The position numbers and the translations under genes were made by a program. A DNA stretch of 32,000 nucleotides, taken from the NCBI GenBank assembly GCA_963675915.1, contig OY780959.1, positions 1,710,001 through 1,742,000 of the forward strand. Reading direction: 5' to 3'. The stretch comes from Coprobacillaceae bacterium (GTDB lineage: Bacteria > Bacillota_I > Bacilli_A > Erysipelotrichales > Coprobacillaceae). Shown one piece after another: positions 2,709 through 30,806 of the stretch (position 1 is its first letter; every line of letters starts with the position of its first letter). The notes beneath the pieces are model-generated. The model worked only from the letters and a program-made list of their open reading frames with translations. It did not search any database and was not told where the DNA came from.

Positions 2709-4184
2709 TTAATTCAAATCAAGAAGCATATCATCATAGTAATCCGATTTTCGGGCTACCTGATTGATGACGTACCCGCCTCCAAGTTCCTCCATCAATG
2801 TCGGTGTTGCCGAGAACAGGTTAGTTCCCAAGCCCAGCCGGTCTCCCTCGATGTCGGCACCTAATGCCGCAAGAGTTGTCGGATACCAATCCATATGAGA
2901 GAATTGACGATTCTTGACATTTTCAGTATCGACCACTGAATTGATAATCACATTGTAGGTTGTTCTGGCATATCCCGAAACATCAGGAAGATATTCTTTC
3001 GACATACTCACATGATCACCCCTGATGACAATTGTAGTGTTTTCGTAGAAATCCTGTTGAGCCAGCCAGTCGAGGAAATCATCAATCTGATGATCAGCGC
3101 AGCTGATTACATTTGCATATTGTTCATCATACTTGTCTTCGCACAAATCACATGCATATCCTTCCGGTGCATGGGTATCAACCGTCAACATGTTAAAGTT
3201 GAAAGGTTCATCTTCAGCAGCCAATTCAGTCAACCTGATTTTGGCAAACTCATAAAGTTTCTGATCTTCATAACCCCAGAATACTCGATAGTCTTCAGGA
3301 ATCCAACCTCTTTCGATTGCATAATAATAATCATCTATTTCAACTCCACCGTGAGTTTGGAAATAACTGCTTCGACCCCCAAATTCGCCATCCGATCCAC
3401 ACATGAACACTTGGTTGTAGCCCTGAGTTTCCAGAACATCACTGATCGAATATGCCCCCGGCAAAAAAGTACCGTAACCGGTGTACGAGTTTCCGTTAAT
3501 TGGTATCGTCAATGGGACCCCGGAAGTTTGAGCCACCAATGATCCAACTGTAAATCCGGTTCCCCCAGTGGAAATATCCCCATTATAAAGTTCAGTTGTC
3601 GAGAATGACAGATTATCGTTTCGCAACTTGGAAAGATTTGGAATCAGATTGTAATCCAGATAGCCACCTTGATCCTTTGAGGCAAAAGTTGATTCCATCG
3701 ACTCAAGATTGATATAAATCAGGTTTCTTTTTTGTTCAGGAAATTCGATTGCAACTGTAGCCGGATCGACATAATCTTCCTCATAGATTACCGATTTATT
3801 CCTTTGGGAATCAATATAATCAGATAGTCTGATTGAATCAGCAGCATTTACCACATTAACCGAGCTCAAGCCAACCAGTCCTACCAGAACAATTACCGAC
3901 GACTTGACATGGAAGTGTCTTTTGCCAGTATGAATCCGCAACTTGGGAAGCAAGGTGATGAACATTAGGAACATTGTCACCAGAAAACTCATCGCCACTA
4001 CCTGAATGATGAAAGAATTGACCAATTGAGAATCTATGCCTCCAGCCGGAGCTTTGATAGTAAAGATGATTCCACTGACGCTGACCCCGCCAAAGTGGCT
4101 TAAATACCAACTTGAAATCAAGCCGATGAAACTGATCAGATATGTTATGATAAAAAACATAACGGTTTTTAATTTATTATTCAT
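2709..4184 (-). CDS. LTA-synthase/phosphoglycerol-transferase family protein (sulfatase-fold, membrane anchored)
   Basis: Start chosen at ATG 4184 (MNNKLKT, AGGT-type RBS) rather than the TTG at 4238. About 3 N-terminal TM segments precede an alkaline-phosphatase-superfamily ectodomain. Motifs: INLESMESTF, GGTGFTVGSLVAQTSG (candidate Thr nucleophile), TVDTHAPEGY, VIRGDHVSM. Confidence 0.8.
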   Translation of the reverse strand: MNNKLKTVMFFIITYLISFIGLISSWYLSHFGGVSVSGIIFTIKAPAGGIDSQLVNSFIIQVVAMSFLVTMFLMFITLLPKLRIHTGKRHFHVKSSVIVLVGLVGLSSVNVVNAADSIRLSDYIDSQRNKSVIYEEDYVDPATVAIEFPEQKRNLIYINLESMESTFASKDQGGYLDYNLIPNLSKLRNDNLSFSTTELYNGDISTGGTGFTVGSLVAQTSGVPLTIPINGNSYTGYGTFLPGAYSISDVLETQGYNQVFMCGSDGEFGGRSSYFQTHGGVEIDDYYYAIERGWIPEDYRVFWGYEDQKLYEFAKIRLTELAAEDEPFNFNMLTVDTHAPEGYACDLCEDKYDEQYANVISCADHQIDDFLDWLAQQDFYENTTIVIRGDHVSMSKEYLPDVSGYARTTYNVIINSVVDTENVKNRQFSHMDWYPTTLAALGADIEGDRLGLGTNLFSATPTLMEELGGGYVINQVARKSDYYDDMLLDLN

Positions 4185-4503
4185 TATTATTACCTGAATG
4201 TTCAAAGTGAACGCTAAAATCAAATTTCGAGTCGACAAAAAGAACCATCAAAGGCAAAATGATCGACCAGACCATTGATATCAATAGATATCTGATTACG
4301 AAAAGCATATCCGCGACATTAAAGTCGATAGCAGGATAATTGTTGCCAAAGAACAAATATATAATTGAATAATTCAACAAAGTTACTGCTAACACAAAAA
4401 AAGACAGATTGCAAAAATAAAAAGATTTAGATCTATCTCCACTTAATTTTTTCAAAACACCGGTTGCAACCACCGATGGCAATAAATAACAAATTATATT
4501 CAT
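4177..4503 (-). CDS. Small 3-TM membrane protein, translationally coupled to the LtaS-like gene
   Basis: Start chosen at ATG 4503 (MNIICYLL), which has an AAAGGTG RBS 8 nt upstream. The ATG at 4545 has no RBS. The protein has three hydrophobic segments. Its stop at 4177 overlaps the ATG at 4184 of the next gene by 8 nt. Confidence 0.5.
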   Translation of the reverse strand: MNIICYLLPSVVATGVLKKLSGDRSKSFYFCNLSFFVLAVTLLNYSIIYLFFGNNYPAIDFNVADMLFVIRYLLISMVWSIILPLMVLFVDSKFDFSVHFEHSGNNNE

Positions 4504-4764: not shown

Positions 4765-5637
4765 TCAGTAGAACCCGGCCAACTTATATCCGATGGTATG
4801 GATAATGACATCGAGATTTTTAAGTGCAATGACCGACTTTGTAATCGGATTTGAATTTTTCTTCATTGCAACTTTCAGGCGATACCGTCTTCTCAAAATC
4901 CGAATTTTCCAATTATCAATAAGATGTTCATCTTCAAGAATGTCACACATATCTTCAAATGAACTGGTCATATTGTCAGATGAAGCTGAAAAGTTGTCCT
5001 CCGTTTCAGTGTGATAATAAAGTTGATCCCGGTTCAGGACAAACTTACATTCAGTTTGGAACATCAATAACCATAAGAAAAGGTCATCACATCCATTGAC
5101 CTTCATGATATTTTCCTTCCACTGATCCGGGATAGCCTTTTTTCTGATTAAACACTGTCCTGGTGAAAGAATCATGTCGGTTCCATAGATGTACATTCGC
5201 TCCTTTTGGGCCAATTTCAAGGCCAGGTCGCGAGAATAAAGCAATTCATTTCGATCAGGAAATTTCCGATACCCATTGGCAACTATTACATCCGCATCCT
5301 GAATTCGGTTGAACTGGCTTGACAGACAATTATCAGTGATTTCATCATCCTGGTCCAAAAAATAGATGAACTTTCCGGCCGCTCGCGCCAATCCGTTTAC
5401 CCTTGTCTGATGAATTCCCTCATTTTTGTTATTTTCCATAAAAATGATTTTGAAGTTGGTATCCGCTTGTTCAAAAACTTGCAAAGGGACCTCGGGATAA
5501 TCGTTGACAAAGATTAGTTCCACTTCAATATTGGGATGCTGTTGTTTTAAGATATTTACATTTTTTGAAATCATACTTATAAGCATATCAAGGTATTTTT
5601 GTCCCTTGTAAATAGGAGTTATTATTGATATATCCAT
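4765..5637 (-). CDS. Glycosyltransferase family 2
   Basis: 290-aa ORF. It has the GT-A N-terminus ISIITPIYKGQKYL, VNDYPE and the DxD-like FLDQDDE. The stop/start arrangement with the upstream gene is TAAtATG. Confidence 0.8.
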   Translation of the reverse strand: MDISIITPIYKGQKYLDMLISMISKNVNILKQQHPNIEVELIFVNDYPEVPLQVFEQADTNFKIIFMENNKNEGIHQTRVNGLARAAGKFIYFLDQDDEITDNCLSSQFNRIQDADVIVANGYRKFPDRNELLYSRDLALKLAQKERMYIYGTDMILSPGQCLIRKKAIPDQWKENIMKVNGCDDLFLWLLMFQTECKFVLNRDQLYYHTETEDNFSASSDNMTSSFEDMCDILEDEHLIDNWKIRILRRRYRLKVAMKKNSNPITKSVIALKNLDVIIHTIGYKLAGFY

Positions 5638-5638
5638 A

Positions 5639-6772
5639 TTATCCCTCCACCTTATTGAATAACTCGAGGTATTGCTTGGCGATGTTGAGGTAATTATACT
5701 CCTCCACCATTGCTGAGCTCATCCGCTCCAATTCATCTTCATCATAATTTTGCGCCAGACATTCCACAATCCGTTCGGCCAGTATTTTTTCGTTTTCGGC
5801 CGGACCGTAATATTCGCACAGCCCCTTGGTGACTTCCACATTTACCGGAATATCCGAAAGAAGCGCTGGAATTTCATTAATGATCGCCTCGACTGCTGTC
5901 ATCCCAAAGCCCTCAAAAAGGGTCGGATTGACATACAGCGATGCATTGGCAAACTTATAATTCAAAGTTGACTCATCCACAAACCCGGTGAACTTGATAT
6001 AGTCTTCCAGATGATGGTCAACAACATATTCCTTCAGATAAGATACCCTCTTGGGCACACTTCCTATCAGAACCAACTTATGTTCAACTTGATCCTTGAT
6101 CAGCTCGAACGCCTTGATCAGCGTAATGATGTTTTTATGATGAAACTGCAAGTTCAGCGCCACAATGTATTTCTCATCATTGGATTTGTCCTTTTCAAGT
6201 TTGTTGACCACGATTGGATTGTAGATCCGGATCACTTTTTGTTTATATTTGCCGTAGTACTCCAATATCTCTGATTTGTCAAAATCACTGATGGCGATAA
6301 TGTTATCGGCATGCTTGAAATCAAGCCAATACATCAATCGGTAAAGCAGGTACTTGTACATCGGTATTTTGACACTCCCAAGATCCCGGTGAGCTACCGC
6401 TTTGATATCATGGGGAATGACAATAGACCTAGTCTTGAGTTTTTTCATTCCGTTGTTGCAACTCAGATGATAAATAACATCAATCCCATTTTCTCTGATT
6501 ATTTTAGGTATTGTAAAAGTTCCGGTCATACATACTTGCAACATCCGCTTAAGTTCGTTATTTACGGGCGCCGATTTGATTGGGATTATCTTAATCTCGG
6601 GGGCAATTTCCCTGATGATATTCACAGAATAGTCAAAACAAATCACAATCAGATCGTCAGTTTTTCCCAACTCATGAAAACCTTTGAGAAGATTTAGCCC
6701 TACCTGATCTTTTCCTCCGGCATGATTTTCACTTAAGTATATGTAATTCAAAGCTATTTTCATAATTTTCAT
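5639..6772 (-). CDS. Glycosyltransferase family 4 (GT-B, group 1)
   Basis: 377-aa ORF. It carries the C-terminal GT1 signature EGFGMTAVEAIINEIPALLSD. There is an ATGA overlap with the upstream gene. Confidence 0.85.
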   Translation of the reverse strand: MKIMKIALNYIYLSENHAGGKDQVGLNLLKGFHELGKTDDLIVICFDYSVNIIREIAPEIKIIPIKSAPVNNELKRMLQVCMTGTFTIPKIIRENGIDVIYHLSCNNGMKKLKTRSIVIPHDIKAVAHRDLGSVKIPMYKYLLYRLMYWLDFKHADNIIAISDFDKSEILEYYGKYKQKVIRIYNPIVVNKLEKDKSNDEKYIVALNLQFHHKNIITLIKAFELIKDQVEHKLVLIGSVPKRVSYLKEYVVDHHLEDYIKFTGFVDESTLNYKFANASLYVNPTLFEGFGMTAVEAIINEIPALLSDIPVNVEVTKGLCEYYGPAENEKILAERIVECLAQNYDEDELERMSSAMVEEYNYLNIAKQYLELFNKVEG

Positions 6773-7950
6773 CCCTCTTGAATTGAATAAAACAAGTCAC
6801 GGTACTTTTCACCGATCACCTCATAGTCGTATTTATGCGACGTTTTTATGGCTTGTTCCCGCAACGCTTCATAAAGACCTCTATCTTCGATCAGGCGGTT
6901 GAGGTTTTTGGCAATATCATCGCTGTTTTTTTCCTCACTAAGCAGCCCGTCATGAGAATCATTGATCAAGTCAACAATTCCCCCTGAATTACTGGCAACC
7001 ACAGGCAATCCAGATGCCATCGCCTCGAGGATAACCAATCCGAAACCTTCCTTATCGCCATCTAAAGCAGTGATAGAAGGTGCGCAAAATATATCCGCAG
7101 AAGCATAGATCAGTTTCAATTCGTCATGGGTCTTTGACCCAAGAAACTCTATGCGACCTGCAGCAACCGCATTTATCTTTCGGGCTTGTTCCTTCAATTG
7201 ATTTTCCAAAGGCCCGCCCCCGACGATTACCAGTTTGGCCTCAACCTGACTCATTGCCTCAATCAAATATGTCACGCCTTTTTTTTCTGCCAGACGCCCC
7301 ACGAATAAAATCACCTTTGAATCATTTTGGTTAAAGTAATTGGCAACCCGATAATCAGGTGTGAAATTTTTAGTATTGCAGCCCATAGAGATGATCTCAA
7401 GATGAGGGACCTTTTGAATTTTGAAAACTTCATCCGCTAAAGCCCGAGACACCGTCGTAACGCCTGCCGCTTTTTTCAAGGCCTTTTTCTTAAGTAGTTT
7501 GAGAATACCTTTATTCAAAGATGTCACGTCTCCACCATGTCCGGTTACAATATACGGAGTTTTGAAAAAACTCTGAATTATCCCCTGGGGGATTATCCAG
7601 TGGGCATGAACCATATCATATTCTTTCAATAATTTTGCTAGATGGAAATAAAGGGACAGCAACAAAAACGGAACCAGCAGGATCCGGGATTTCTTCTCTT
7701 TGATTCTGGGAACAATCGCCCCAGGATAGCATAAAGTCTCAAATCGGTGCAAGGGGAAGTAATGATATCTGATCACCTTCACACCTTCTATAGTTTCCCG
7801 GTCGGCTGAACCGATTGCTGCTGGAACCATAACAGTCACATTGAAATACCGATTAAGTTCCTTGCACAAATCCAAGACAAATCGCGGCTCGGTATCCCCT
7901 TCATATCTTGGAAAAGTCGAAGCTGTAACTAATAATTTTTTCTTGTTCAT
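6769..7950 (-). CDS. Glycosyltransferase family 4 (GT-B, group 1)
   Basis: 393-aa ORF. Motifs: EGFGLVILEAMASGLPVVASNSGG and HAHW. An AGAGGT RBS lies 4 nt upstream of the ATG at 7950. Confidence 0.85.
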   Translation of the reverse strand: MNKKKLLVTASTFPRYEGDTEPRFVLDLCKELNRYFNVTVMVPAAIGSADRETIEGVKVIRYHYFPLHRFETLCYPGAIVPRIKEKKSRILLVPFLLLSLYFHLAKLLKEYDMVHAHWIIPQGIIQSFFKTPYIVTGHGGDVTSLNKGILKLLKKKALKKAAGVTTVSRALADEVFKIQKVPHLEIISMGCNTKNFTPDYRVANYFNQNDSKVILFVGRLAEKKGVTYLIEAMSQVEAKLVIVGGGPLENQLKEQARKINAVAAGRIEFLGSKTHDELKLIYASADIFCAPSITALDGDKEGFGLVILEAMASGLPVVASNSGGIVDLINDSHDGLLSEEKNSDDIAKNLNRLIEDRGLYEALREQAIKTSHKYDYEVIGEKYRDLFYSIQEG

Positions 7951-7996
7951 ATTGACCTCTCATTATATATGTCCAAATGGTATTTGACAAAATCAA

Positions 7997-8938
7997 TCAG
8001 ACAAAATTATTTCTCAAGTATTCAAGGGTTTCTCTGATTGTTTGTTCGATAGCAATGCAAGGCTGCCAACCTACCGTATCTCTAATTTTGCTGATATCAG
8101 CTTCAATTATCGGAACATCAACCGGTCTGAACTTTGACTTGTCCACATTGACTGCGATTTCCTTGGTTGAATATTTCAAAATCGTCTTCAATATTTCATC
8201 AATCATAACCGCATTACCGCTACCCACATTGTAGGTTTCCCCGGCTTTGCCTTTTTCCATCAGCATCACATATGCTTTAACTACATCCCGAACATCAGTG
8301 AAGTCTCTTTTGGCCGAGAGATTCCCGACATTGATAACCGGTTTTTGCAATCCGTTTTCGATATTGACAACCTGATTGCAAAAATCAGCCACCACAAAGA
8401 GCGGTTTTTGATTGGGCCCGATATGATTGAATGCCCGAACCGAAATAATATCAAGATCATAAGCATCACAATATATCTTACCAATCATGTTTTGGCATGC
8501 TTTTGTCGCTGCATAAATGTTCCCCGGTCTAGTGTTGTTGTTTTCAGCGATTGGAACCTCGGTCGCTTTAACATGACCGTACTCCTCACCAGATCCGATC
8601 AATAAAAGACGGAGATTTTGATCAATATCCTTCAATACTTCCAGAATATTCAAAGTCCCATTGATATTGATATCAACTGTGAGTTTGGGATTCTTCCATG
8701 AAAGCGCAACTGATGACTGCGCCGCAAGATGGAAAATCCAATCCGGTTTCAGTTCAACTAACAACTCATATATCATCTCTTTATTCAATATATCGAGATC
8801 AACAACTTTGGATTTACTGCTATGATATTCTTCATGGGGAAGTTTGGTGATATGAACTTCATTCCCACTTATTTTATGAAGTTCGGCCTCGAGATACGGT
8901 CCGACAAATCCCGCTCCGCCTATAATCAATGATTTCAT
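7997..8938 (-). CDS. rmd: GDP-4-dehydro-6-deoxy-D-mannose reductase (Rmd-type SDR); product stereochemistry (D-rhamnose vs 6-deoxy-D-talose) not resolvable by eye
   Basis: 313-aa ORF directly downstream of gmd. It has the Rossmann motif IIGGAGFVG, GSGEEYG, YAATK (YxxxK), and FNHIGPNQKPLFVV...VGNLSAKRDFTDVRDVVKAYV...GETYNVGSG. These match the Rmd pattern as I recall it from Pseudomonas aeruginosa Rmd. They do not match the Fcl/WcaG pattern. Confidence 0.72.
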   Translation of the reverse strand: MKSLIIGGAGFVGPYLEAELHKISGNEVHITKLPHEEYHSSKSKVVDLDILNKEMIYELLVELKPDWIFHLAAQSSVALSWKNPKLTVDININGTLNILEVLKDIDQNLRLLLIGSGEEYGHVKATEVPIAENNNTRPGNIYAATKACQNMIGKIYCDAYDLDIISVRAFNHIGPNQKPLFVVADFCNQVVNIENGLQKPVINVGNLSAKRDFTDVRDVVKAYVMLMEKGKAGETYNVGSGNAVMIDEILKTILKYSTKEIAVNVDKSKFRPVDVPIIEADISKIRDTVGWQPCIAIEQTIRETLEYLRNNFV

Positions 8939-8954
8939 AGTTGGTCTCCTTTTG

Positions 8955-8982
8955 AAAAATCAGAGAGTGGTCACTCTCTGAT
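8955..8982 (-). terminator. Intra-operon hairpin between gmd and rmd (attenuator or RNA stabiliser candidate)
   Basis: Near-perfect palindrome ATCAGAGAGTGgtCACTCTCTGAT at 8959..8982. On the minus strand it is followed by TTTTTCAAAA and then the rmd RBS AAGGAG. Confidence 0.4.
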
Positions 8983-8987
8983 CGTTT

Positions 8988-10028
<1,041 letters not shown>

Positions 10029-10108: not shown

Positions 10109-11062
10109 TTATTTAGATTTCGAATTATCATAATCCATTCTTTTTACCCTTACTTGGATATCTTCCATCATTTTGCGGTTTGTCGAAATCAAATCACCCA
10201 ACAAGCCCACAACTACAGTCATAAAGCCAAGCATCATCAGAGTGCTGGCCAGTATCAGCGATTGGACATGTCCGTCACCCGCTCCAGTAGCGAGATAGAT
10301 CAGGTATCTGACCCCTAACGCCATTCCTAGCCCAAAAATCACAGCTCCCAAGGTAGCAAAGAATTTCATTGGTTTGTAGACAATATACGCTCTTACAATG
10401 GTCACCATTGAACGTTTGACATAACCAAACATACTGCTAAAAAGTCTTGATGGGCGCAGTTCGGCATTAGTTCTTATCGGAACCGATGTCATCGCAATTT
10501 TACTTCTTCCCGCCTGTACAATTGTTTCCAGCGTATATGTATATTCATTAGTAACATTCATCGCCATAGCCGCATCCCGGCTAAAAGCCCTGAATCCACT
10601 TGGTGCGTCGGGAATATCCGAATTAGAGGCAACTCGAACAACCCAGCTTCCAAAGTGCTGCAACATTTTTTTTAAAGGAGAAAAATGTTCAGTTTCATCA
10701 ATCGGTCTTGCTCCAATAACAATATCCGATTTACCTTCGATAATCGGTCGTACCAGTTTCTCAATGTCCGCTCCGTTATATTGATTGTCAGCATCGGTAT
10801 TGACAATTATATCCGCGCCATTTCTCAAACAGGCATCAAGCCCGGCCATAAACCCTTTGGCCAAGCCTTTATTCCTCTTGAAATTAACAACATAGTTGAT
10901 CCCCCATTTTCGGGCCACTTCAACTGTATTATCCTTTGAACCGTCATTAATGATCAGATATTCAATCTCGTCAATTCCGTCAATCTGCTTTGGCAAATCA
11001 TTGAGGGCAATCTCAAGAGTCTCAGCTTCATTATAACAAGGTATTTGAATAATTAATTTCAT
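10109..11062 (-). CDS. Polyprenyl-phosphate glycosyltransferase, GT2 with two C-terminal TM helices (GtrB/CsbB/DPM1-like)
   Basis: 317-aa ORF. Motifs: IQIPCYNEAETL, INDGSKDNT, NTDADNQY. Two C-terminal hydrophobic helices are present (FFATLGAVIFGLGMALGV and LILASTLMMLGFMTVVVGLLG). The RBS is AGAGGT. Confidence 0.72.
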   Translation of the reverse strand: MKLIIQIPCYNEAETLEIALNDLPKQIDGIDEIEYLIINDGSKDNTVEVARKWGINYVVNFKRNKGLAKGFMAGLDACLRNGADIIVNTDADNQYNGADIEKLVRPIIEGKSDIVIGARPIDETEHFSPLKKMLQHFGSWVVRVASNSDIPDAPSGFRAFSRDAAMAMNVTNEYTYTLETIVQAGRSKIAMTSVPIRTNAELRPSRLFSSMFGYVKRSMVTIVRAYIVYKPMKFFATLGAVIFGLGMALGVRYLIYLATGAGDGHVQSLILASTLMMLGFMTVVVGLLGDLISTNRKMMEDIQVRVKRMDYDNSKSK

Positions 11063-11076
11063 ATTGTTACCTCTAT

Positions 11077-11084
11077 CTTTCTAT
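11077..11084. repeat. Left copy of the 8-bp target-site duplication CTTTCTAT
   Basis: Identical 8-mer at 12770..12777. Each copy directly abuts a terminal inverted repeat of the IS. Confidence 0.9.
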
Positions 11085-11096
11085 GGTAGTGTCAAA
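11085..11096. repeat. IS left terminal inverted repeat
   Basis: GGTAGTGTCAAA; perfect reverse complement of 12758..12769. Confidence 0.9.
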
Positions 11097-11129
11097 ACCA
11101 GTTAGTTATTTATAGCTTTAAATAACTGG
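11093..11129 (-). terminator. AT-rich bulged hairpin plus T-run just inside the IS left end (terminator-like on the minus strand)
   Basis: Minus strand: CCAGTTATTTA-loop-TAAAT(aact)AACTGG (11 bp with a 4-nt bulge) followed by TTTTG. The stem is weak. Confidence 0.3.
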
Positions 11130-11275
11130 TAAACCGCATTCTACCTAGGTTTTTTATCTATTTTAGTCGCTCCCCTCCGGAATCGACATATAACTTAGCC
11201 ATTTCAATATACAAAAAAGGCAATAGCTCCTATAATTGTAAGTGACAAAACCACAAGTAAAGGAGAACTATTACC

Positions 11276-12739
11276 ATGGCTAAGATTATATCACTAATTA
11301 TCAAATTATTGAATATTGTCAATAAAATTTCTTTCAAATTCGAATGCTTTTTGATGAAATTTCTTCCCAAAGATCCTGATACTTTAATAATGGGCGAACA
11401 ATACCGCAAATTCAAGGTTGATCCAGTTCCTTTCATCAAAGAAGAAAATCTCCCGATTTCATTTGATGAAGCGGTAGAAATATATAAATCCAAACATAAA
11501 GGTCGCTCGCCCAAACCTATAAATAGACGGGTTCCTTTAAACATACCAAAAGATACTGTTTGCCCTCACTGTGGAGCTCCTTACGAATATCTTTATGACA
11601 ACAAGTCCGGCAAAATATCAAAGCAGTGTCGCTGCAAAGTATGCGATACCGCCTTCGTTCCTGGAAAACCATATATCCAACAAGTGGCACATTACTGCCC
11701 TTATTGCGGGGTAAAACTGGATCCACGTCATACCCGTGAACATTTCACTGTATATCGTTGTCCTAACAACATGTGTACTTACTACAAGCACAATCTCAGA
11801 ATGATGAACCGCAAGGAGAAGAAACTCTACAAGAGAAATCCTTCCGCCTTCAAACTCCACTACATAACCAGAGTTTTCAGTGCTACCATAGAACAATTGG
11901 AAAGACTTCAGGCAACCATAACCCCTTCAAAGGTCCAATTGTCGAGAATCCATAATTCAAAGCACATACTGGGCCTAATCCTCACATACCACATCAACTA
12001 CGGCTTATCTTTGAGGAAAACCGCGTTGATTATGCGAGAAGTTCATGACGTCAAAGTATCTCATCAGACTGTCGCCAACTATGCCGAAGCAGCCAGTTGT
12101 CTGATCAACCCTTGGTTGGACAACTACCAGTATGACAATTTGACTGTAGATCAGTGCGGTGATGAAACTTACGTGAAAGTCAAAGGCAAGAAAGCCTATG
12201 TCTTTTTCATGTGTGACAGTGTCAGAAAAATAATAACCTCTTACAACATCTTCATGAAAAGAGATACATTTTCAGCAATTCAAGCTTTCTATTCAGTAAT
12301 CAGAAAGTTTACAGTCATTCCAGAAGACCTGCCTGAAGATTTGAATTTCGTCGTTGATGGCAATCCAATCTACCTCGCTGCCCAACAATATTTACATATA
12401 AACAAAATAAGATTCAAAGTTCATCAGGTAATCGGTTTAGAAAACAAAGATGAAACTTCAAAGATGTATCGATCTCAAAAGCAAATAATTGAGAGATTGA
12501 ATAGAACATTCAAGTTCTCATATTACGTAAAGAATGGATTTGCGGATTTAAACAAAGCAAATGAATTCATGTGTCTGTTTACCACATACTTTAATTTCCT
12601 CAGGAAGCATAGTTCTTTGGAATACAGTCCTCCAGTTAAACTGGAATCATTCGAAGGTGTGACCAACATGCCTAGAAAATGGAATATGATTATCGCTATG
12701 GCCAATGATTACATCATCAACAACTCCATAACAAATTAA
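11276..12739 (+). CDS. DDE transposase, IS6/IS240-type catalytic core with an N-terminal double zinc-ribbon extension
   Basis: 487-aa ORF with an AAGGAG RBS. Catalytic core: GDETYVKVKGKKAYVF (D), VVDGNPIY (D), IIERLNRTFK (E). N-terminal Cys clusters: CPHCG...CRCKVC and CPYCG...CPNNMC. Confidence 0.88.
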   Translation: MAKIISLIIKLLNIVNKISFKFECFLMKFLPKDPDTLIMGEQYRKFKVDPVPFIKEENLPISFDEAVEIYKSKHKGRSPKPINRRVPLNIPKDTVCPHCGAPYEYLYDNKSGKISKQCRCKVCDTAFVPGKPYIQQVAHYCPYCGVKLDPRHTREHFTVYRCPNNMCTYYKHNLRMMNRKEKKLYKRNPSAFKLHYITRVFSATIEQLERLQATITPSKVQLSRIHNSKHILGLILTYHINYGLSLRKTALIMREVHDVKVSHQTVANYAEAASCLINPWLDNYQYDNLTVDQCGDETYVKVKGKKAYVFFMCDSVRKIITSYNIFMKRDTFSAIQAFYSVIRKFTVIPEDLPEDLNFVVDGNPIYLAAQQYLHINKIRFKVHQVIGLENKDETSKMYRSQKQIIERLNRTFKFSYYVKNGFADLNKANEFMCLFTTYFNFLRKHSSLEYSPPVKLESFEGVTNMPRKWNMIIAMANDYIINNSITN

Positions 12740-15237
12740 TCATACTTTTCATACCTGTTTGACACTACCCTTTCTATAAATTCCAATGATTGAATCGCTA
12801 TTCCCAAAGTACGGTTGTCTACCAATCCCAGTTCCGTTGGAGACCAGGTGTCCAAAATCAATTTGACCTCATTCTTACCATCTTCAACGACATCTCGGGC
12901 AATAGAGGAAACTATTGGATCAGAGTCGTTTTGGGAATTCACGGAAACTGTATTGATAAGAGTATCATTGAAATATACTTCAACTTCTAGATTTTTGGTA
13001 TTGATTGCATCAAATGGAATAATCGGTAATTGATTGATGACAAGATCGTAATTGTTTTGCTCAAGGTAAACATTGATGATTACTTCACTTGAATTAGTCC
13101 ATCTGAAATCACCCTCGATATCCCCAAATCCGTCTTGAATAACCTCAGGATTGTTCATCAGATAAATATTTTTTGGAGTTTCCATTTTCATTAGTGTGAT
13201 TTCAACTTCTTGCTGTGAAAAAGCAAATGGCAACGGAACATAGCGATAACGATATTCATTGAGGTCCTGAGAAGTAAGATAGCTTCCCTTGGAGATAACC
13301 CGGTTATCGAAATCCAAATAATCAATCTCACTGTCCGTCAGCAAATAGACATTGCTGTATTTGTCACTCAAATAATCAATAGTGCTTTCGACTCCCTCGC
13401 TAAATATCGGATAGACATCAGTGGCCGCCAAGCTTTTTAGCGGCAAGGCAAACAATCGGCTGATCCTGCTGTCAGTCAATATCACAGCGCTGTCAGCTCC
13501 GATATCTTCAAAAACCTGGGTCATTATATTGTAACTCATTTTTGAATCATCATCGTTATCAAGCATAACATATCCATAATAACCGTTGAATCCGGCGGCA
13601 ACTATCAATATTGCCAAGACAATCCCTTTAGGCAGATACTCGCAGTAAATAGCGTATGCCAATGCAATTATCAAAACAAACGGCGCAACATAACGGGCAT
13701 AATAATAATAATGAAGTATCTCAATTCGCATGAACGTCGATGTTATTAATATATTGTAGATGAACAAGAACGTGATAATCAATCTCTTGTTGTCCTTAAG
13801 GAAAATCCGGGTTTTGAAGAACATAAACAGCAAGCCAAGCGGCAAGGCCAGTAAGCCGGTCATATAGACGTAAGCCGACAAAGTCAGGTTTTTGATCCCA
13901 CCCAGTTTACCGTAATACCCGGCTTGGGATGAATTTTCTACCGGCAACATTCCACTGACAAGCTTATAGGCATAGTAAGCTGTATACAGGATGACAGCGG
14001 CAACAACCAACTTTACCAACCAGGCAAGAACCTTGTTATTCGTAAATTCAAATTTGAATTTAGCGCCGAACTTGCCAAGCAAAAAGATTATCACTCCACA
14101 AAGTACCACAACACCCAAGACAAACGGAATAAGATTGCCATGGTTCAAAGGCCCAAAATACATCGGTCTGCTATTATTGAAACTGTATTCAGGTGTGATA
14201 TACAACATGAATAGGTACCCGATGGTAAAGAACAGCAAAGCCAGATAATTTGCCCGCAGGTATGTCTTGTTACGAGTATTAATAAATAAAAGCCAGTAAA
14301 GAACTACTATTTCCGGCATGATTGTATAAATGGAAATATGGAAGAATGAAAATACTAAAATAGGTATTGATGTCAGTATGATCGAACCTGGCTTTGAGGA
14401 TGTGAAGTAATAAATCAAAAACGTGAATATCAACGTCAAAAACATCTCTGTCAATGACGACTTTGATACCCATAGTACAATCGGTGACATCGCAGCAATT
14501 GCCAGAACCACATAAGAATTCAATTCACTCAAATTCAGGTTGTCGGCAATCTTTTTGACCATGATGGCAAATGCGATAAAGAATACACTTTGAAAAATCA
14601 ACATGTTTTCAATCCCAAAAACACTGATTGCCAGTGCCAAAATCGCTGGGAATGTCGGTATTCCGTGGAATATCCCGGAAACTTCGCTCAGCTCATCACT
14701 ATCGCTTAAAAATGGTTTCTGGGAATCGTAATTGTCAAATCCCAACAAATCCAAGACAAAATCGCTGTAATCTTCTTTTTGACTATCAGTTGCCAGTCCG
14801 GAATACTCCTCGAAGTCAAGTTGTCTTGACGAGTCGCCATAAACAAGCTGGATTGCTTTTGTTTGGTAAACCCCTTCATCCTGACCCATTCCAAAAAATT
14901 CAAATTTATTGAATGAGAAAATTGTTGCAATAATCAAGACTATCACAAAAAGCGGTTTTTTTGGTTTCAATAATTCCAATTCATTGTTGTTCTTTATCTT
15001 ATTTTTGTAATATAAATATCCCAGAATGACAACGTTAAGAATCAACATGAAAAGTTGAACACGCTCAACCTTGAATTTATCAATAAGGAAAAAACCGGAA
15101 CTGATCAGGATATATTCGCCAAAATAATAGAACACAAGCTTGGCAAACCACTCAAGAATATCAACTTTTTTCAACGCCAATATCATGATCATTCCCGCAA
15201 CAAATATGTTTATTGTAAATAACCAAAAATTATCCAT
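12736..15237 (-). CDS. Large polytopic membrane protein, GT-C-fold glycosyltransferase candidate (ArnT/PMT_2/YfhO-like); last 10 codons are IS-derived
   Basis: 833-aa ORF with more than 10 hydrophobic segments. An acidic motif FGMGQDEGVYQTKAIQL sits in the first extracytoplasmic loop. There is a ~250-aa soluble C-terminal domain. The gene lies next to a GtrB-like GT2. Codons from 12768 down to 12739 (VVSNRYEKYD) lie inside the IS. Confidence 0.6.
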   Translation of the reverse strand: MDNFWLFTINIFVAGMIMILALKKVDILEWFAKLVFYYFGEYILISSGFFLIDKFKVERVQLFMLILNVVILGYLYYKNKIKNNNELELLKPKKPLFVIVLIIATIFSFNKFEFFGMGQDEGVYQTKAIQLVYGDSSRQLDFEEYSGLATDSQKEDYSDFVLDLLGFDNYDSQKPFLSDSDELSEVSGIFHGIPTFPAILALAISVFGIENMLIFQSVFFIAFAIMVKKIADNLNLSELNSYVVLAIAAMSPIVLWVSKSSLTEMFLTLIFTFLIYYFTSSKPGSIILTSIPILVFSFFHISIYTIMPEIVVLYWLLFINTRNKTYLRANYLALLFFTIGYLFMLYITPEYSFNNSRPMYFGPLNHGNLIPFVLGVVVLCGVIIFLLGKFGAKFKFEFTNNKVLAWLVKLVVAAVILYTAYYAYKLVSGMLPVENSSQAGYYGKLGGIKNLTLSAYVYMTGLLALPLGLLFMFFKTRIFLKDNKRLIITFLFIYNILITSTFMRIEILHYYYYARYVAPFVLIIALAYAIYCEYLPKGIVLAILIVAAGFNGYYGYVMLDNDDDSKMSYNIMTQVFEDIGADSAVILTDSRISRLFALPLKSLAATDVYPIFSEGVESTIDYLSDKYSNVYLLTDSEIDYLDFDNRVISKGSYLTSQDLNEYRYRYVPLPFAFSQQEVEITLMKMETPKNIYLMNNPEVIQDGFGDIEGDFRWTNSSEVIINVYLEQNNYDLVINQLPIIPFDAINTKNLEVEVYFNDTLINTVSVNSQNDSDPIVSSIARDVVEDGKNEVKLILDTWSPTELGLVDNRTLGIAIQSLEFIERVVSNRYEKYD
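12758..12769. repeat. IS right terminal inverted repeat
   Basis: TTTGACACTACC; reverse complement equals the left inverted repeat. Confidence 0.9.
12770..12777. repeat. Right copy of the 8-bp target-site duplication CTTTCTAT
   Basis: Identical to 11077..11084. Confidence 0.9.
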
Positions 15238-16434: not shown

Positions 16435-17619
16435 TCAGCTATCCTCCAGTACAGTCGATATTAACTTGTCAAATCGTGAGATGATAACGTCCCAACGATA
16501 ATTTGTATCCACGTATTTTTTTGCATTTTCTTTCATGACGGCCACAATTTCTTCATTTTCAAGCAGGTAGTTAACCGTCGCCTCAAACTCGAAATAGTTA
16601 TTATAATAGAGAGCCCCATTGCTTTTTAAACAGTGTCCTTTCAATACCCGACACTTGCCATAGACAAGTACTGGGGTCTTGACACTCATTGCCTCAAGGA
16701 CGACCATTGAAAGTGATTCGAATTCACTTGGCAGAACCAGCATTTTGGCTCCTTTAATTCCATCATATTTGTCCTGTTCACTGACAAAACCGAGACTGAC
16801 TATATCCTTGTTTTTAGGAATATCCATTGCCGGTTTTCCCATCAAGACCAATTTCAAATCTCCCCCGATTCGCTTCTTGTATTCTTTGAAATACTTGAAC
16901 AAAACGTGACAGTTCTTCCCCTCATCGATTCTTCCGACATAAACTAGATAGTTTTCCAAACCATATGTTTGTTTGAATCGGTTGCTGTCGATATCTTCAG
17001 GAAGTTCAATTCCAACACCGCCAATATCATAAGGGATATCAATTCCAAACTTGGCTTCAATCATATCCCGTTCTTCTTCAGTGTTAAAAAAATATGCTTG
17101 CGGAAGTTTGAAAAGACGTTGATATTTTTCCATTCTTAAAAATGGCTCATCATGGGCCAGCGGAATCAGGATTGCTTTTTCTTTGACCTTATCCAACCCA
17201 ACAATGGTCGGATAATAAAGATAAGTGAAAAAGACAAATAAGTCATAATTATCCTTGTTCTCTTCAATATAGCTGATTAACTCAGGAGTATATGGCCCCT
17301 GCTTTTCAATCCACTCCGTTTCCCGTTCGTGAGGGAGCCTTCCCGACATAAACAAACCATTGATTTGGTCGAATTCTTTTTGATTTCGTTCTTTGGCAAC
17401 GGCAAATCTTCGAACCGGAACGGAATTGATCACTTCAAAATCCGATTTGTATTCATTTTTCCAAGTAGTATATTCGATTGCTTTAGTAGTCAAAACTTCG
17501 ATATTGGGGTGATTCACAATCATCTTCTCGACCAATTGGCGACAATGCAATTCCGCCCCGCCATTGACTTCTTCCCCATATCGTTGCACCACAAAAGCAA
17601 TTCGGACCTTATTGTTCAT
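16435..17619 (-). CDS. Glycosyltransferase family 4 (GT-B)
   Basis: Start chosen at ATG 17619 (MNNKVRIAFVVQRYGEEVNGGAELH), which has a GGAG RBS 9 nt upstream, rather than 17676. Motif: FESLSMVVLEAMSVKTPVLV. Confidence 0.82.
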   Translation of the reverse strand: MNNKVRIAFVVQRYGEEVNGGAELHCRQLVEKMIVNHPNIEVLTTKAIEYTTWKNEYKSDFEVINSVPVRRFAVAKERNQKEFDQINGLFMSGRLPHERETEWIEKQGPYTPELISYIEENKDNYDLFVFFTYLYYPTIVGLDKVKEKAILIPLAHDEPFLRMEKYQRLFKLPQAYFFNTEEERDMIEAKFGIDIPYDIGGVGIELPEDIDSNRFKQTYGLENYLVYVGRIDEGKNCHVLFKYFKEYKKRIGGDLKLVLMGKPAMDIPKNKDIVSLGFVSEQDKYDGIKGAKMLVLPSEFESLSMVVLEAMSVKTPVLVYGKCRVLKGHCLKSNGALYYNNYFEFEATVNYLLENEEIVAVMKENAKKYVDTNYRWDVIISRFDKLISTVLEDS

Positions 17620-18694
17620 AATAATTCTCCATAAAGTCAGCCAAATATTCGACAAATTGCTGCTCGACAACTTCATGACTGAAAGAATTCAAACGCTTTT
17701 TCTGATTGGCAAGCAGATTATCCTGAAGTGCTTTGTTATTGACAACGTAGTCGATCAACCCGGCTGTTTCAATCGGATTTTTTTGAGCAACCACCAGGCC
17801 ACCGGCACCCAAAGTCTCCGGCACTGCACATGAATCATAGGCTATGATCGGTGTTTCAAACTTCATTGCTTCCACTAAAGGAACACAGAAACCTTCATGT
17901 TCACTCATGCACAAAAACAAATCGGCAATTGTGTAGTAAGCCAGGATATGATCGAAGGGAATATGTCCCGGGAAAATCACATCTTCCACCCCTAAGGCTT
18001 CGATATAATCTTCAAGGCGTTGATAGTAAGATTCCATTCCCTGACTATTTCCTACCAGGATCAGACGGGAATTTTTGTTATAGTATTTCTTGTAATGGAA
18101 AAATGCATTGATAACGTCTTCCTGCTTCTTATTTGGCGCAATCCTTCCGGTAAACAGAATATTGGTGAAACCATCATCCTGATATTTCTTGATTACTTTG
18201 GCATTTGGTTTTTTCTCATAGTCTTCAAAAGGAATCAATATCGGCAGAACCTTCATCGGACAATCAAACCCAATTTCTTTCAATTCATCGACGTTATATT
18301 GAGAATCTCCAATCACATAGTCGAATTTGTCTTTCAAAAATTCCAGGCTCTTACGACCTTCATTGCACAAGTTATAGGCGATATCCGAATATGGTTTGAA
18401 AAATTCAGGTGGTGTGATGTTATGGTAAATCATGATTTTCTTACCAGGATAATCAGCAATTCTGTAGTTGAGTTTGGTTCCGGTCGACATGTGATAAATA
18501 ATCACATCTTCAGGACTCACATTCAGATTATCCACCGAAAAGATGAATGAGTTTTTAAGCAGCCTTTGATCGATATTTTCACTGTATATCCCAGTTTGGT
18601 AACCTTGGCGTTCCAATGAACGGTGGATTGCCATGGTATCATTACTGACAGCGTCGCCAAATGAGATAGTCGTAAGTACTTGTAGTATCCGCAT
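17609..18694 (-). CDS. Glycosyltransferase family 4 (GT-B)
   Basis: 361-aa ORF. Motif: EHEGFCVPLVEAMKFETPIIAY. The RBS is AGGTG. Confidence 0.85.
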   Translation of the reverse strand: MRILQVLTTISFGDAVSNDTMAIHRSLERQGYQTGIYSENIDQRLLKNSFIFSVDNLNVSPEDVIIYHMSTGTKLNYRIADYPGKKIMIYHNITPPEFFKPYSDIAYNLCNEGRKSLEFLKDKFDYVIGDSQYNVDELKEIGFDCPMKVLPILIPFEDYEKKPNAKVIKKYQDDGFTNILFTGRIAPNKKQEDVINAFFHYKKYYNKNSRLILVGNSQGMESYYQRLEDYIEALGVEDVIFPGHIPFDHILAYYTIADLFLCMSEHEGFCVPLVEAMKFETPIIAYDSCAVPETLGAGGLVVAQKNPIETAGLIDYVVNNKALQDNLLANQKKRLNSFSHEVVEQQFVEYLADFMENYYEQ

Positions 18695-27020: not shown

Positions 27021-29708
27021 CTAATCCATATCCGCATTTACCATCAATTTTACCAGGCCTTCGAACGAAACATCACGTTTCCATCCCAAGGTCTTGGTCG
27101 CTTTGGTATTGTCGCCCCGTAGCTCTTTGATGCTTGATGGACGGAAATATTTCGAATCGATATCGACAAGCAGATTCCCGGTCTGTTTGTCATAACCTTT
27201 TTCATCAATTCCCTTGTCACGCCATTCGATCTCGATTCCGACCGTCTTGAACGCCAGTTCCACGAATTCGCGGACACTGTGCGATTCATTGGTTGAAAGG
27301 ACATAGTCACCCGGAATCGCTTCCTGGAGCATCAGCCACATTCCTGCCACATAATCGCCGGCAAAGCCCCAGTCTCTTTTGGAATCCAGGTCACCCAGGG
27401 TCAGTTTGTCCTGACGGCCGTTGTAGATGTCAGCTACCGCTTTGGTGATTTTACGGGTCACATATTTGCTGTCACGGCGTGGTGATTCATGATTGAACAT
27501 GATTCCGTTGCACGCGAAGATATTATATGACTTGCGGTACATCACCGTAGTCCAGTACGCATTCAATTTCGAAATTCCGTATGGGGAATTCGGAGCGAAA
27601 GCTGTCGTTTCGCTTTGAGGCACGGTTTCCAGATTGTCTCCATACATTACACATGAAGAAGCCTGGAAGTATTTGGCATTTAGTTTCGACTTCTGGATTG
27701 CATCGAGAATCCGAATCGCCCCCAGAGAGTTGACATCGTTGGTGTATTCCGGTATCTCATATGACGTCGAGACGAATGACTGTGAAGCCAGGTTGTAAAC
27801 TTCGTCCGGTTTGATCTGTTCGATCAGACGGTTGACATTGGTTCCGTCAGTCAGATCCCCGTAATGAAGATAGAATGATTTGTTTTCGATTCCCTCGAGG
27901 ATTTCCCCTTCGAGATCATTGTCGTTGTTTGAGAAACGACGCATCATCCCATGGACTTCATAGCCCTTGTTGAGCAGGAAGCGGGAAAGATAGAAACCAT
28001 CCTGACCGCTTACCCCGGTGATAAAGGCCACTTTCTTTTCTTCCTTGGTTTCAATGATACTCATCAGCTCGGTTTCCAGCTGTTTTTGTTTGTTGTTTGC
28101 TTCATACTTGGTTTCACCGATGACACAGTAGTAGAACTTGCACTTCGGTTCAGTTCCACTAGGTCTTACCGCAAACCATGATCCGTCTTCAAGATAATAT
28201 TTCAAAACGTTTGATTTGGGCAGGATCTTGTATGAATGACGGACGAAGACATTCTCATTGGCGAAGTCTTCGACTTTGACCACTTTGTATCCGGCAATTC
28301 GGTTAAGTTTCTGCTTGCGCAGGTTGTTGACCACGATTCCGGCATTCTTGAGTTTCTTCGACTTGTTCACATCGATATAGTAACCGTATTTTTCATAGAT
28401 ATCATGCAAAGCATCAACCAGGTCTTTGCCTTGTGAGGCATAATAGTTAACCACTTCAGCCAGAACCATACATGATTGCACGGCATCCTTGTCTTTTGAG
28501 ATCCCGCTGAACAGATAACCGTATGATTCCTCATAACCGAAGACAAAATCGAATTCATTGGTTCTTTCATATTCACAGATCAATTCCCCGATGAATTTGA
28601 ATCCAGTCAGAGTAGTCTGGTTTTTGATACCATAGTTCTGGGCGATTACTTTACCCAGACTGCTGGTCACCACTGTATCGAAAATGATGGTATCCTGATT
28701 AAGTTTCCCTTGTTGTTGCAAGGTTCCCAAGATGTATTCAAGCAGGATCGCTCCGGTCTGGTTACCAGTCAAAAAGACGAATTCACCTTCATGTTCAACT
28801 GCGATTCCCAACCGGTCACAGTCGGGATCGGTGGCAATCACATACTTGGCATTGTTCTTTTTTGCCTGAGCGATTCCCAGATCGAAAGCATGGATATTTT
28901 CCGGATTCGGATTGGGCGTGTTGATGAACTCGGTCGAAGGGAAACATTGTTCCTCGACGATTTCATAATTGACTCCGCGACGGTCGAACATTGTTGTGAC
29001 CGGCACGAATGAAGTCCCATGTTGTGATGAGAAGACAATCTTGGTTGCCTGGTAGTCGACCTCATTGTATTTGACCTTGTCAAGCAAGTCATAATACTTG
29101 TTGTCGATTTCTTCACCGATGTACTCGATGTATTGTTGTTCTTTTCCTTTTGAGGCCATTTCAACATCGAAACCATCCTCAACCATGGTGATGTACTCAT
29201 AGATCCGGTTGGTTTCATGGACAACACACTGGTTTCCATAATGGTTGTAGACCTTGAATCCGTTGTATTCCTTGGTATTGTGGCTGGCAGTGATTACCAC
29301 TCCCGCAAAAGCCTGCAACTCCTGAATCGCAAACGACAATTCCGGAGTCGGGCGCAAATCATCAAACAAGTAGACCTTGATTTCATGATTGGCCAATACC
29401 GAGGCCACGATTTTGGCGAATTCCTGAGAATGGCGGCGGTTGTCATAAGCGATAACCGCTGACTTGTTATGGTCGCCGACATAGGCATTGATATAGCTAG
29501 CCAGCCCTTCAGCCAGTTTTCTGATAGTGAAGATATTCAGTTTCGATGGTCCCACTCCCATGATTTCGCGGACTCCACCGGTACCAAATTTCAATTTAGA
29601 ACCGAAAATCTCTTTGATTTCAATCTCACTTAAAGATTCGATTTCTTCTTTCAATTCATCTGTCAAAGGAGCTTTAAGCCACTTTTCATATACGTCCATG
29701 TATTCCAA
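27021..29708 (-). CDS. Fusion protein: N-terminal PgcA-type phosphohexomutase (phosphomannomutase/phosphoglucomutase) plus C-terminal GDP-mannose-4,6-dehydratase-like SDR domain
   Basis: 895-aa uninterrupted ORF. The start is TTG at 29708 with a GAGGT RBS 8 nt upstream. Mutase motifs: TASHNTKEYNGFK (phospho-Ser loop), DPDCDRLG (Mg site), GYEESYG (sugar loop), RPSGTEPK (phosphate loop). From about codon 559 onward the Gmd-like motifs are ITGVSGQDGFYLSRFLLNKGYEV, SPYGISKLN, NHESPRRDSKYVTRKIT, GDLDSKRDWGF. The catalytic TSE position reads SCV. Confidence 0.85.
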   Translation of the reverse strand: MEYMDVYEKWLKAPLTDELKEEIESLSEIEIKEIFGSKLKFGTGGVREIMGVGPSKLNIFTIRKLAEGLASYINAYVGDHNKSAVIAYDNRRHSQEFAKIVASVLANHEIKVYLFDDLRPTPELSFAIQELQAFAGVVITASHNTKEYNGFKVYNHYGNQCVVHETNRIYEYITMVEDGFDVEMASKGKEQQYIEYIGEEIDNKYYDLLDKVKYNEVDYQATKIVFSSQHGTSFVPVTTMFDRRGVNYEIVEEQCFPSTEFINTPNPNPENIHAFDLGIAQAKKNNAKYVIATDPDCDRLGIAVEHEGEFVFLTGNQTGAILLEYILGTLQQQGKLNQDTIIFDTVVTSSLGKVIAQNYGIKNQTTLTGFKFIGELICEYERTNEFDFVFGYEESYGYLFSGISKDKDAVQSCMVLAEVVNYYASQGKDLVDALHDIYEKYGYYIDVNKSKKLKNAGIVVNNLRKQKLNRIAGYKVVKVEDFANENVFVRHSYKILPKSNVLKYYLEDGSWFAVRPSGTEPKCKFYYCVIGETKYEANNKQKQLETELMSIIETKEEKKVAFITGVSGQDGFYLSRFLLNKGYEVHGMMRRFSNNDNDLEGEILEGIENKSFYLHYGDLTDGTNVNRLIEQIKPDEVYNLASQSFVSTSYEIPEYTNDVNSLGAIRILDAIQKSKLNAKYFQASSCVMYGDNLETVPQSETTAFAPNSPYGISKLNAYWTTVMYRKSYNIFACNGIMFNHESPRRDSKYVTRKITKAVADIYNGRQDKLTLGDLDSKRDWGFAGDYVAGMWLMLQEAIPGDYVLSTNESHSVREFVELAFKTVGIEIEWRDKGIDEKGYDKQTGNLLVDIDSKYFRPSSIKELRGDNTKATKTLGWKRDVSFEGLVKLMVNADMD

Positions 29709-29722
29709 AATAAATTACCTCA

Positions 29723-30766: not shown

Positions 30767-30797
30767 AAAAGTCCTCCATTACTCAGTAATATGAATT

Positions 30798-30806
30798 AGT
30801 ATACCA
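30798..30806 (-). promoter_or_regulatory. Extended -10 element (TGgTATACT) for the manC unit
   Basis: Minus strand reads TGGTATACT about 32 nt upstream of the manC ATG. No convincing -35 element was found. Confidence 0.4.

Follow-up and report, generated by a model that had tools for sequence, protein, structure and literature searches.

What places a mobile element exactly between the end of one gene and the ribosome-binding site of the next is the question raised by a 32,000-nucleotide stretch of the genome of a Coprobacillaceae bacterium (GenBank assembly GCA_963675915.1, contig OY780959.1, positions 1,710,001 to 1,742,000 of the forward strand), hereafter called the window. Within a large minus-strand cell-wall polysaccharide locus, an insertion sequence (IS) of 1,685 bp separates the gene of a membrane glycosyltransferase with a predicted GT-C fold from that of a GtrB-like glycosyltransferase of family GT2. 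A preliminary description, drawn up from the window sequence, had treated the position beside the ribosome-binding site as a peculiarity of this one event; comparison of 31 insertion sites identifies it as the habitual target of a whole IS group. The best overall explanation, in which we have considerable confidence, is a recent insertion of a long IS6-like element at the start-codon position that its group habitually occupies.

The element and its empty site

The borders of the element can be fixed to the nucleotide by the following features.

11085..12769, + strand: insertion sequence, 1,685 bp, delimited by its inverted repeats, the 8-bp duplication and a gap in the alignment to the related contig L001
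11077..11084, no strand: left copy of the target-site duplication, CTTTCTAT, single-copy in L001
12770..12777, no strand: right copy of the target-site duplication, CTTTCTAT, from the window sequence and the L001 alignment
11085..11096, + strand: left terminal inverted repeat, GGTAGTGTCAAA, 12/12 complementary to 12758-12769
12758..12769, + strand: right terminal inverted repeat, TTTGACACTACC, perfect partner of the left repeat
11276..12739, + strand: transposase, 487 aa, with an N-terminal extension, four CxxC zinc-ribbon motifs, a helix-turn-helix and a DDE core (D296/D361/E406)
11208..11236, + strand: promoter-like site of the transposase gene, TATACA-17 nt-TATAAT, 10/12 consensus matches, 40 nt before the ATG

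The transposase gene is the single long open reading frame (ORF) between the IS ends, and the left tip is also present in relatives whose transposases share 46-88% identity with that of the window. The element thus bears the generic marks of an IS: terminal repeats, a duplicated target, a transposase ORF and, in a relative, an empty site.

The empty site was found in a related strain, on a 2.57-Mb contig (L001; ena:ERZ21878204:ctg9560c) retrieved by an exact match to the GT2 protein encoded at 10109..11062. Gene order there is that of the window, the transposase is absent, and the membrane protein has 823 rather than 833 aa. The junction reads TTG GAA TTT ATA GAA AGA TAG AGGTAACAAT ATG (empty-site junction sequence, ACCTCTATCTTTCTATAAATTCC), the membrane protein ending in LEFIER* 10 nt before the GT2 ATG. 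Ungapped blastn aligned L001 1-5986 with window 18755-12770 and L001 5979-12954 with window 11084-4109, and the overlap of these two blocks is exactly the 8 duplicated bases. Outside one 1-kb patch, ~0.5% of flank positions differ. Because the flanks are ~99.5% identical to those of the empty-site strain, the insertion is recent on the scale of strain divergence: its arrival in the cell-wall glycan locus is a recent, strain-level event. The divergent patch (window ~16755-17755) holds 123 mismatches in 1 kb (12%), compared with 1-11 per 500 bp over the rest of the 13-kb alignment; it lies inside the GT4 genes 16435-17676 and 17609-18694 and is probably a recombination tract.

Most of what the preliminary description had read from the window agrees with these comparisons. 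The perfect 12-bp inverted repeats, pairing at 12/12 positions, and the 8-bp duplication are as it gave them, the empty site that it had rebuilt is identical base for base to L001 in the related-genome comparison, and the near-identity of the flanks supports its dating of the event as recent. The range that it had assigned, 11085..12777, includes one copy of the duplication; the element proper ends at 12769. As it had further stated, the insertion changes an AGA codon to AGG and appends ten residues (VVSNRYEKYD) to the membrane protein, whose last 10 codons and stop (12736-12768) are IS sequence. Its view that this tail is not a native C-terminus also holds, since all homologues, which end at 822-823 aa, are without it: those of 28-57% identity terminate at the same position as the 823-aa form. 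The overlap of the transposase and GT-C stop codons was likewise confirmed, in a TTAA common to both (12736-12739).

Wider searches yielded little. A metagenome scan with a 25-mer of flank plus duplication gave 0 matches, and a scan with a 17-mer of the left end gave 54, all by chance and none with an IS. Phage records held no match to the element, and an Rfam scan of the window returned no family. Searching contigs with the transposase recovered one 5'-truncated relative in a Coprobacillaceae metagenome-assembled genome, with no recognisable IS ends. Look-ups by exact protein identity were empty for the window transposase, its two closest relatives and the 833-aa membrane protein, all of which lie on the window's own 2.6-Mb contig.

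Insertion sites and start codons

Insertion sites of relatives were gathered from public assemblies and complete annotated plasmids, giving 31 distinct, independent sites with the window's own included; the relatives' transposases share 38-96% identity with that of the window. By transposase type and identity to the window transposase, they are distributed as follows.

Window: 100% identity, 1 site
P0245 type: ~88% identity, 6 sites
P0007 type: 67% identity, 7 sites
P0006 type: 67% identity, 1 site
P0026 type: 57% identity, 6 sites
P0033 type: 58% identity, 1 site
P0071 type: 48% identity, 3 sites
P0096 type: 46% identity, 2 sites
Plasmid copies: 38-45% identity, 4 sites

The left IS end lies 22-24 nt from the ATG of an outward-reading gene in 29 of the 31 sites. 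One site is an exception, with an ATG at 26 nt and a GTG at 23, and one is ambiguous, its contig stopping 30 nt from the element with a GTG at 22. Within sublineages the spacing is exact: all unambiguous sites of the window-like sublineages (14/14) stand at precisely 22 nt, and all P0026-type sites (6/6) at 23 nt. Orientation is equally uniform, the transposase being antisense to the target gene in 30/30 interpretable sites, while genes on the far side of the element mostly run in the same direction as the target gene.

In these 29 sites GGAGG-like Shine-Dalgarno (SD) bases stand around -12 to -8, and the duplicated 8 bp fill -22 to -15. The duplications, verified at 13 sites, are AT-rich and otherwise unconserved. 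An alignment anchored at the ATG shows A at +4 in 21/21 sites and a purine at +3 in 21/21, with T at -1 in 15/21. The SD as sole anchor was ruled out, because GGAGG shifts by ~1 nt while the distance to the ATG stays constant within a sublineage, which identifies the start-codon region as the tighter anchor.

The target gene in the window conforms to this layout.

10109..11062, - strand: GtrB-like GT2, 317 aa, with the SD at 11070-11074 and the ATG at 11060-11062, 22 nt from the IS

Defined strictly as CAT at 22-23 nt plus an SD complement, the pattern has a background frequency of 0.37% over the positions and orientations of the window. The consensus is matched there by about ten further gene starts, so that the GT2 start is one of many possible targets.

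Taken together, the evidence is that a long IS6-like group habitually inserts before start codons at a fixed distance and in a fixed orientation, a habit barely noted in the literature, and the window insertion, taken by itself, is nothing unusual for an element of a known kind. ISCbo1, a shorter element treated below, has been described as "in most cases located directly upstream a gene" (Skarin et al. 2011, PMC3098183), a sentence reached by a search on element names. It is the only mention that we found, literature searches on IS targeting of ribosome-binding sites or start codons having returned nothing.

Two of the plasmid relatives illustrate the settings in which such elements occur. 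In Levilactobacillus brevis pKB290-1 (L107) the relative sits in a conjugative-transfer operon, flanked by trbL-like and topB-side genes; in L. plantarum pMF1298-5 (L108) a copy without its left end lies in an energy-coupling factor (ECF) transporter locus. Among the short-read contigs, flanks are mispaired in L058, L060, L070, L073, L078 and others, and flank pairing there is untrustworthy: the right flank TATGTCAC... of the L071 site, for example, appears in L070, L073 and L078. This mispairing is an assembly effect, and the left junctions themselves are unaffected.

A feature of the opposite end of the element offers a possible route to target choice.

12740..12757, - strand: right-end subterminal motif, ATGAAAAGTATGA on the operon strand, starting 17 nt from the tip and conserved in all sublineages

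Going inward from the tip, this non-coding motif reads (T)ATGAAAA on the operon strand, is often repeated and occurs in every sublineage. Types with the target ATG at 22 nt (window, P0007, P0006) have it starting 17 nt from the tip, and those with the target ATG at 23 nt (P0026, P0071, P0096) have it starting at 18 nt; plasmid relatives and the shorter elements ISCbo1 and ISCpe7 also carry it at 17-18 nt. The distance from the centre of the staggered 8-bp target (-18.5) to the ATG approximates that from the tip to the element's own motif. With TATGAAAA 17-18 nt from the tip and (T)ATGRA 22-23 nt from the insertion, a transposase domain that binds the subterminal motif may therefore also capture start-codon contexts.

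On the best explanation, an element of the long, zinc-finger IS6-like group moved into a cell-wall polysaccharide operon in a single strain, duplicating 8 bp, and landed at its group's habitual position, with its left end 22 nt before the ATG, just 5' of the SD, and its transposase antisense to the target. We infer that the transposase recognises the gene start region on DNA. In its full form, the proposal is that the ~480-aa IS6-like elements of Firmicutes would be specific, family-wide, for translation initiation regions: the transposase would read the SD and (T)ATGRA on double-stranded DNA, probably via its TATGAAAA-binding domain, and insert at -22/-23, in one orientation, before essentially any gene. 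This stronger claim we judge about equally likely to hold or to fail.

Several elements use safe sites in comparable ways: Tn7 inserts downstream of glmS, IS1397 and ISKpn1 at repetitive extragenic palindromic (REP) sequences, and class C group II introns after terminators. With these the window element shares a recurrent genomic landmark outside coding sequence and a fixed orientation. It differs from them in having as its landmark the translation initiation region of essentially every gene, which amounts to thousands of sites per genome, and in coming to lie within operons as well, where it separates a gene from the one upstream.

Family placement of the transposase

Domain analysis relates the transposase to the IS6 family at a distance. 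Pfam matches to DDE_Tnp_IS240 (28.0 against a threshold of 27) and rve_3 were just above threshold, and the NCBIfam model transpos_IS6 scored 70.6 bits, below its 125-bit cut-off. The CxxC pairs are C96/C99, C120/C123, C141/C144 and C162/C167, preceded by ~90 residues. In an alignment of 20 sequences of 44-96% identity, D296 (CGDETY) and D361 (DGNPIY) are invariant and E406 (IERLNR) is present in at least 90%.

The protein collection contains 2,372 homologues, mostly of ~480 aa, from gut, food and thermophilic Firmicutes; many lie on ~1.7-kb contigs, as would be expected of a repeated element. Searching plasmids with tblastn recovered relatives of 38-45% identity in Geobacillus, Pediococcus, Levilactobacillus and Clostridium estertheticum, as well as ISCpe7 and ISCbo1 at 22-26% identity over residues 92-474 (E 1e-15 to 1e-18). 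A count of copies elsewhere in the genome, which the preliminary description had left to be made, gave at least six related transposase genes of two subtypes on the window's own 2,625,387-bp contig. The window transposase is a clean mosaic of these two subtypes, residues 1-40 and 423-487 following the 483-aa subtype P0002 and residues 53-400 the 487-aa P0001, with 81 informative sites and zero private differences. This pattern indicates recombination or gene conversion between IS copies.

By the strict IS6/IS26 standards of Harmer & Hall 2019 the element is atypical, with a transposase of 487 aa (vs ~220-240), a length of 1,685 bp (vs 0.7-0.9 kb) and a failed IS6 model, while its 8-bp duplication conforms. 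Its inverted repeat, GGTAGTGTCA, has G1, G2 and G7 of the G1, G2, G7, G10 expected in the conserved 14-bp repeat of IS6, with A at position 10. With canonical IS26, IS257 and IS6100 it shares the DDE_Tnp_IS240 core, the 8-bp duplication, a repeat beginning GG with G7, and an outward -35-like hexamer in the terminal repeat, which is TTGACA here and TTGCAA in IS26 and IS257. The canonical elements differ in being 0.8 kb long, with a ~230-aa transposase without a zinc finger, and no start-codon-directed targeting is known among them.

A closer counterpart is provided by ISHahy6, ISHco2 and ISTet2, which form clade VIII of one classification (Harmer & Hall 2019, PMC6807381) and clade i of another (Varani et al. 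2021, PMC7986276). These long clostridial IS6-like elements measure 1,713-1,761 bp and encode a ~453-aa transposase with a zinc finger and a ~100-aa extra N-terminal extension, and they generate an 8-bp duplication; no experimental data exist for them, their membership in the family is disputed, and neither review mentions target specificity (PMC6807381, PMC7986276). The window element resembles them in its size (~1.7 kb), its one CxxC transposase of ~450-490 aa, its N-terminal extension, its 8-bp duplication and its Firmicutes host. It differs at the tips, which are perfectly complementary and begin GG, whereas those of the long elements are rarely complementary and only one begins GG (PMC6807381). 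At 1,685 bp and 487 aa, with a CxxC zinc finger and a further N-terminal extension, the element fits the published description of the long zinc-finger IS6-like group of Firmicutes.

ISCbo1 and ISCpe7 (clade VII or clade h, with the zinc finger only) have a homologous transposase and a right-end TTATGAAA motif 17-18 nt from the tip. They differ in length (1.27-1.31 kb) and in their ~340-aa transposase without the extra N-terminal extension. All five of their plasmid copies (5/5) show an 8-bp duplication. Clostridium botulinum BKT015925 carries 25 copies of ISCbo1.

The interrupted operon and competing explanations

The genes and signals around the element, beyond the target gene itself, are these.

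12736..15237, - strand: GT-C-fold membrane glycosyltransferase, now 833 aa, with a C-terminal beta-sandwich resembling a carbohydrate-binding module (CBM); native form 823 aa (P0121)
4765..10019, - strand: gmd, rmd-like reductase, GT4, GT4 and GT2, downstream of the IS on the operon strand
4692-4669, operon strand: terminator-like site downstream of the glycosylation genes
11085..11156, transposase strand: nested palindrome, its tip GGTAG pairing with CTACC at 11142-11146, then TTTTTT at 11151-11156

The two genes parted by the element keep the labels GT-C and GtrB-like that they had been given, at the level of fold and architecture. The 823-aa membrane protein has no Pfam, NCBIfam or PDB sequence match; an AlphaFold model built with 54 homologues reached a pLDDT of 90.7, and its top 20 Foldseek matches in the PDB were all GT-C enzymes (STT3, ALG9/12, ArnT, AftD, PglB, DPY19, AftA), with E down to 1e-5 and TM-scores of only 0.2-0.5. 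The C-terminal domain matches beta-sandwiches of the CBM6, CBM35 and BcsB type, and a G-x-G-Q-D motif (D120) is invariant in the 54 homologues, a candidate for the acidic residue that GT-C enzymes conserve in their first extracytoplasmic loop. By its model, the 823/833-aa protein is a GT-C-fold protein. The 317-aa GT2 matches Pfam Glycos_transf_2 at residues 7-165 and has hydrophobic stretches at ~233-256 and 268-292; its best NCBIfam matches (AglJ, PpgS, PgfS, ArnC) are all far below their cut-offs, and at the level of architecture it is like a GtrB polyprenyl-phosphate glycosyltransferase. A GT2 with two C-terminal helices directly following a GT-C-fold membrane protein recalls the three-component glycosylation systems GtrA/GtrB/GtrC, CsbB/YfhO and PgfS/PgfM, from which the window differs in that its GT-C protein belongs to a family without a Pfam model. 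No flippase gene was identified adjoining the pair.

The surrounding locus includes an initiating sugar transferase, many GT4 and GT2 genes, a Wzm/Wzt-type ATP-binding cassette exporter with a Wzt C-terminal domain, and GDP-sugar genes. An 895-aa ORF (27021-29708, - strand) joins two complete enzymes, a phosphomannomutase with four PGM_PMM domains and a GDP-mannose 4,6-dehydratase (GMD), the second GMD of the locus, and is adjoined by a nucleotidyltransferase (29723-30766) and an epimerase/reductase (30993-31952). Past the operon terminator, the - strand also encodes a sulfatase-family membrane protein of 509 aa, which starts at TTG and has LtaS-like architecture (2709-4238), and a YegS/DAGK-type lipid kinase (1715-2617).

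Besides gaining a tail, the GT-C gene now has 1.7 kb of antisense DNA between itself and its GtrB-like partner. The GT2 keeps its SD and ATG intact, so that the transcript is what matters: GT2 expression would now depend on read-through across the IS and would therefore probably be reduced, not abolished. The combination of a transposase transcribed against the operon with the lack of a conserved outward promoter favours such a reduction, which is plausible from the arrangement of genes and signals.

Several observations weigh against habitual insertion at start codons as the account of this locus. Most sites come from short metagenomic contigs, some of which pair the left and right flanks of different copies. 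In ISCbo1 and ISCpe7, three of the five plasmid copies lie 24-27 nt from the SD-preceded ATG of a gene reading away from them; a fourth has just an SD-like run beside it, and the fifth departs from the pattern. Part of the pattern must be owed to selection against insertions that disrupt genes, and the share of true target choice is unquantifiable from surviving copies. The 17/22 versus 18/23 covariation of motif and target distance divides by phylogeny into two classes, and one evolutionary event could account for it. Finally, neither the left end nor the interior of the IS yielded a conserved outward-facing promoter.

The strongest competing explanation, put forward in the preliminary description, is a natural polar knock-down in which the IS would stop operon transcription and silence the GtrB-like GT2, gmd, rmd and three further glycosyltransferases, with loss of side-chain glycosylation. 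Such silencing would be consistent with 1.7 kb of untranslated antisense DNA, bearing a convergent transposase gene with its own promoter-like site, between GT-C and GT2; with the mere 10 nt between the two genes in the empty allele, where a dedicated GT2 promoter would be unexpected; and with a stable hairpin at the IS exit. That hairpin had been described as terminator-like. It is indeed present (11097-11130, z = -3.0), but on the operon strand only TTTT follows it, it does not qualify as a terminator, and a scan of 10900-13000 found no terminator-like site on either strand. The hairpin is the inner part of the larger nested palindrome, whose tip pairing recurs in 10/12 sublineages despite differing inner sequence, and the T-run conserved in relatives lies on the transposase strand, not the operon strand.

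Genes further downstream could moreover be served by promoter-like sites of their own on the operon strand. One, TTGTCA-17-TATAAT at 7990-7962 (11/12), falls within the 46 nt that separate the rmd-like gene from the first GT4, and the last three glycosyltransferase genes may be transcribed as a separate unit; another, at 10105-10078 (9/12), precedes gmd. Both are consensus matches only. A wholesale loss of GDP-6-deoxyhexose supply is also unlikely: the second GMD, the nucleotidyltransferase and the epimerase (27021-31952) lie upstream of the IS, so that GDP-sugars do not come solely from genes below it. Relatives are similarly placed in many operons, including the conjugation operon and the ECF transporter locus, which suggests that such insertions are often tolerated. 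We therefore regard the knock-down as a tentative possibility, somewhat short of an even chance.

Other signals in and near the element were noted. A hybrid outward promoter starting from the TTGACA of the inverted repeat was considered and rejected, its -10 falling on the SD and being passable in 1/7 sublineage representatives. A second small hairpin (11167-11193), upstream of the transposase promoter-like site, has a loop that is C-rich on the transposase strand (CTCCCCTCC; CCCCC in relatives) and resembles the anti-Shine-Dalgarno core; it occupies an equivalent place in relatives too. In the gap between gmd and the rmd-like gene, a 10-bp perfect palindrome (8959-8982, ATCAGAGAGTGGTCACTCTCTGAT) is terminator-like on the + strand by scan and could attenuate transcription within the operon.

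Far less probable is that the position beside the ribosome-binding site arose by chance and purifying selection, with random AT-rich insertions filtered so that coding-sparing copies survive. The AT-rich and otherwise unconserved 8-mers, and the fact that surviving copies are a filtered sample, accord with it; the nucleotide-exact distances within sublineages are beyond selection, a single orientation is not something selection could impose, and the pattern background is low. The window insertion also alters the upstream coding sequence, and the site is hence not a neutral intergenic one.

Still less probable is an ancestral IS-bearing allele from which the element was precisely excised in the related strain. 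Only two alleles have been seen, and recombination between the 8-bp repeats could in principle excise it precisely, but homologues from many genera (28-57% identity) end at ...F-x-x-K/R without the tail, the empty site keeps the tight stop/ribosome-binding-site arrangement, and precise excision is generally rare for IS6-type replicative elements (PMC7986276). An assembly artefact, with a repeated IS collapsed or misplaced, is the least credible of all: related copies do exist in the genome and short-read contigs of relatives are demonstrably chimeric, but the 8 bp that occur once in the empty allele are found duplicated at the two junctions, the contig is 2.6 Mb long, and colinearity with L001 extends for 6-7 kb to either side.

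For this strain, insertion at the habitual start-codon position comes between a GT-C enzyme and the probable maker of its lipid-linked sugar donor, the GT2, and surface glycosylation may be altered as a result. For the family, a large and barely studied IS group appears to pick its targets by the gene start region, with nucleotide precision and in a fixed orientation, a habit that explains why its transposase genes are repeatedly annotated antisense within operons. If the transposase itself makes the choice, this would represent a new mode of safe-site finding for a DDE element, a natural source of operon-splitting or expression-changing mutations, and possibly a tool for inserting DNA before genes.

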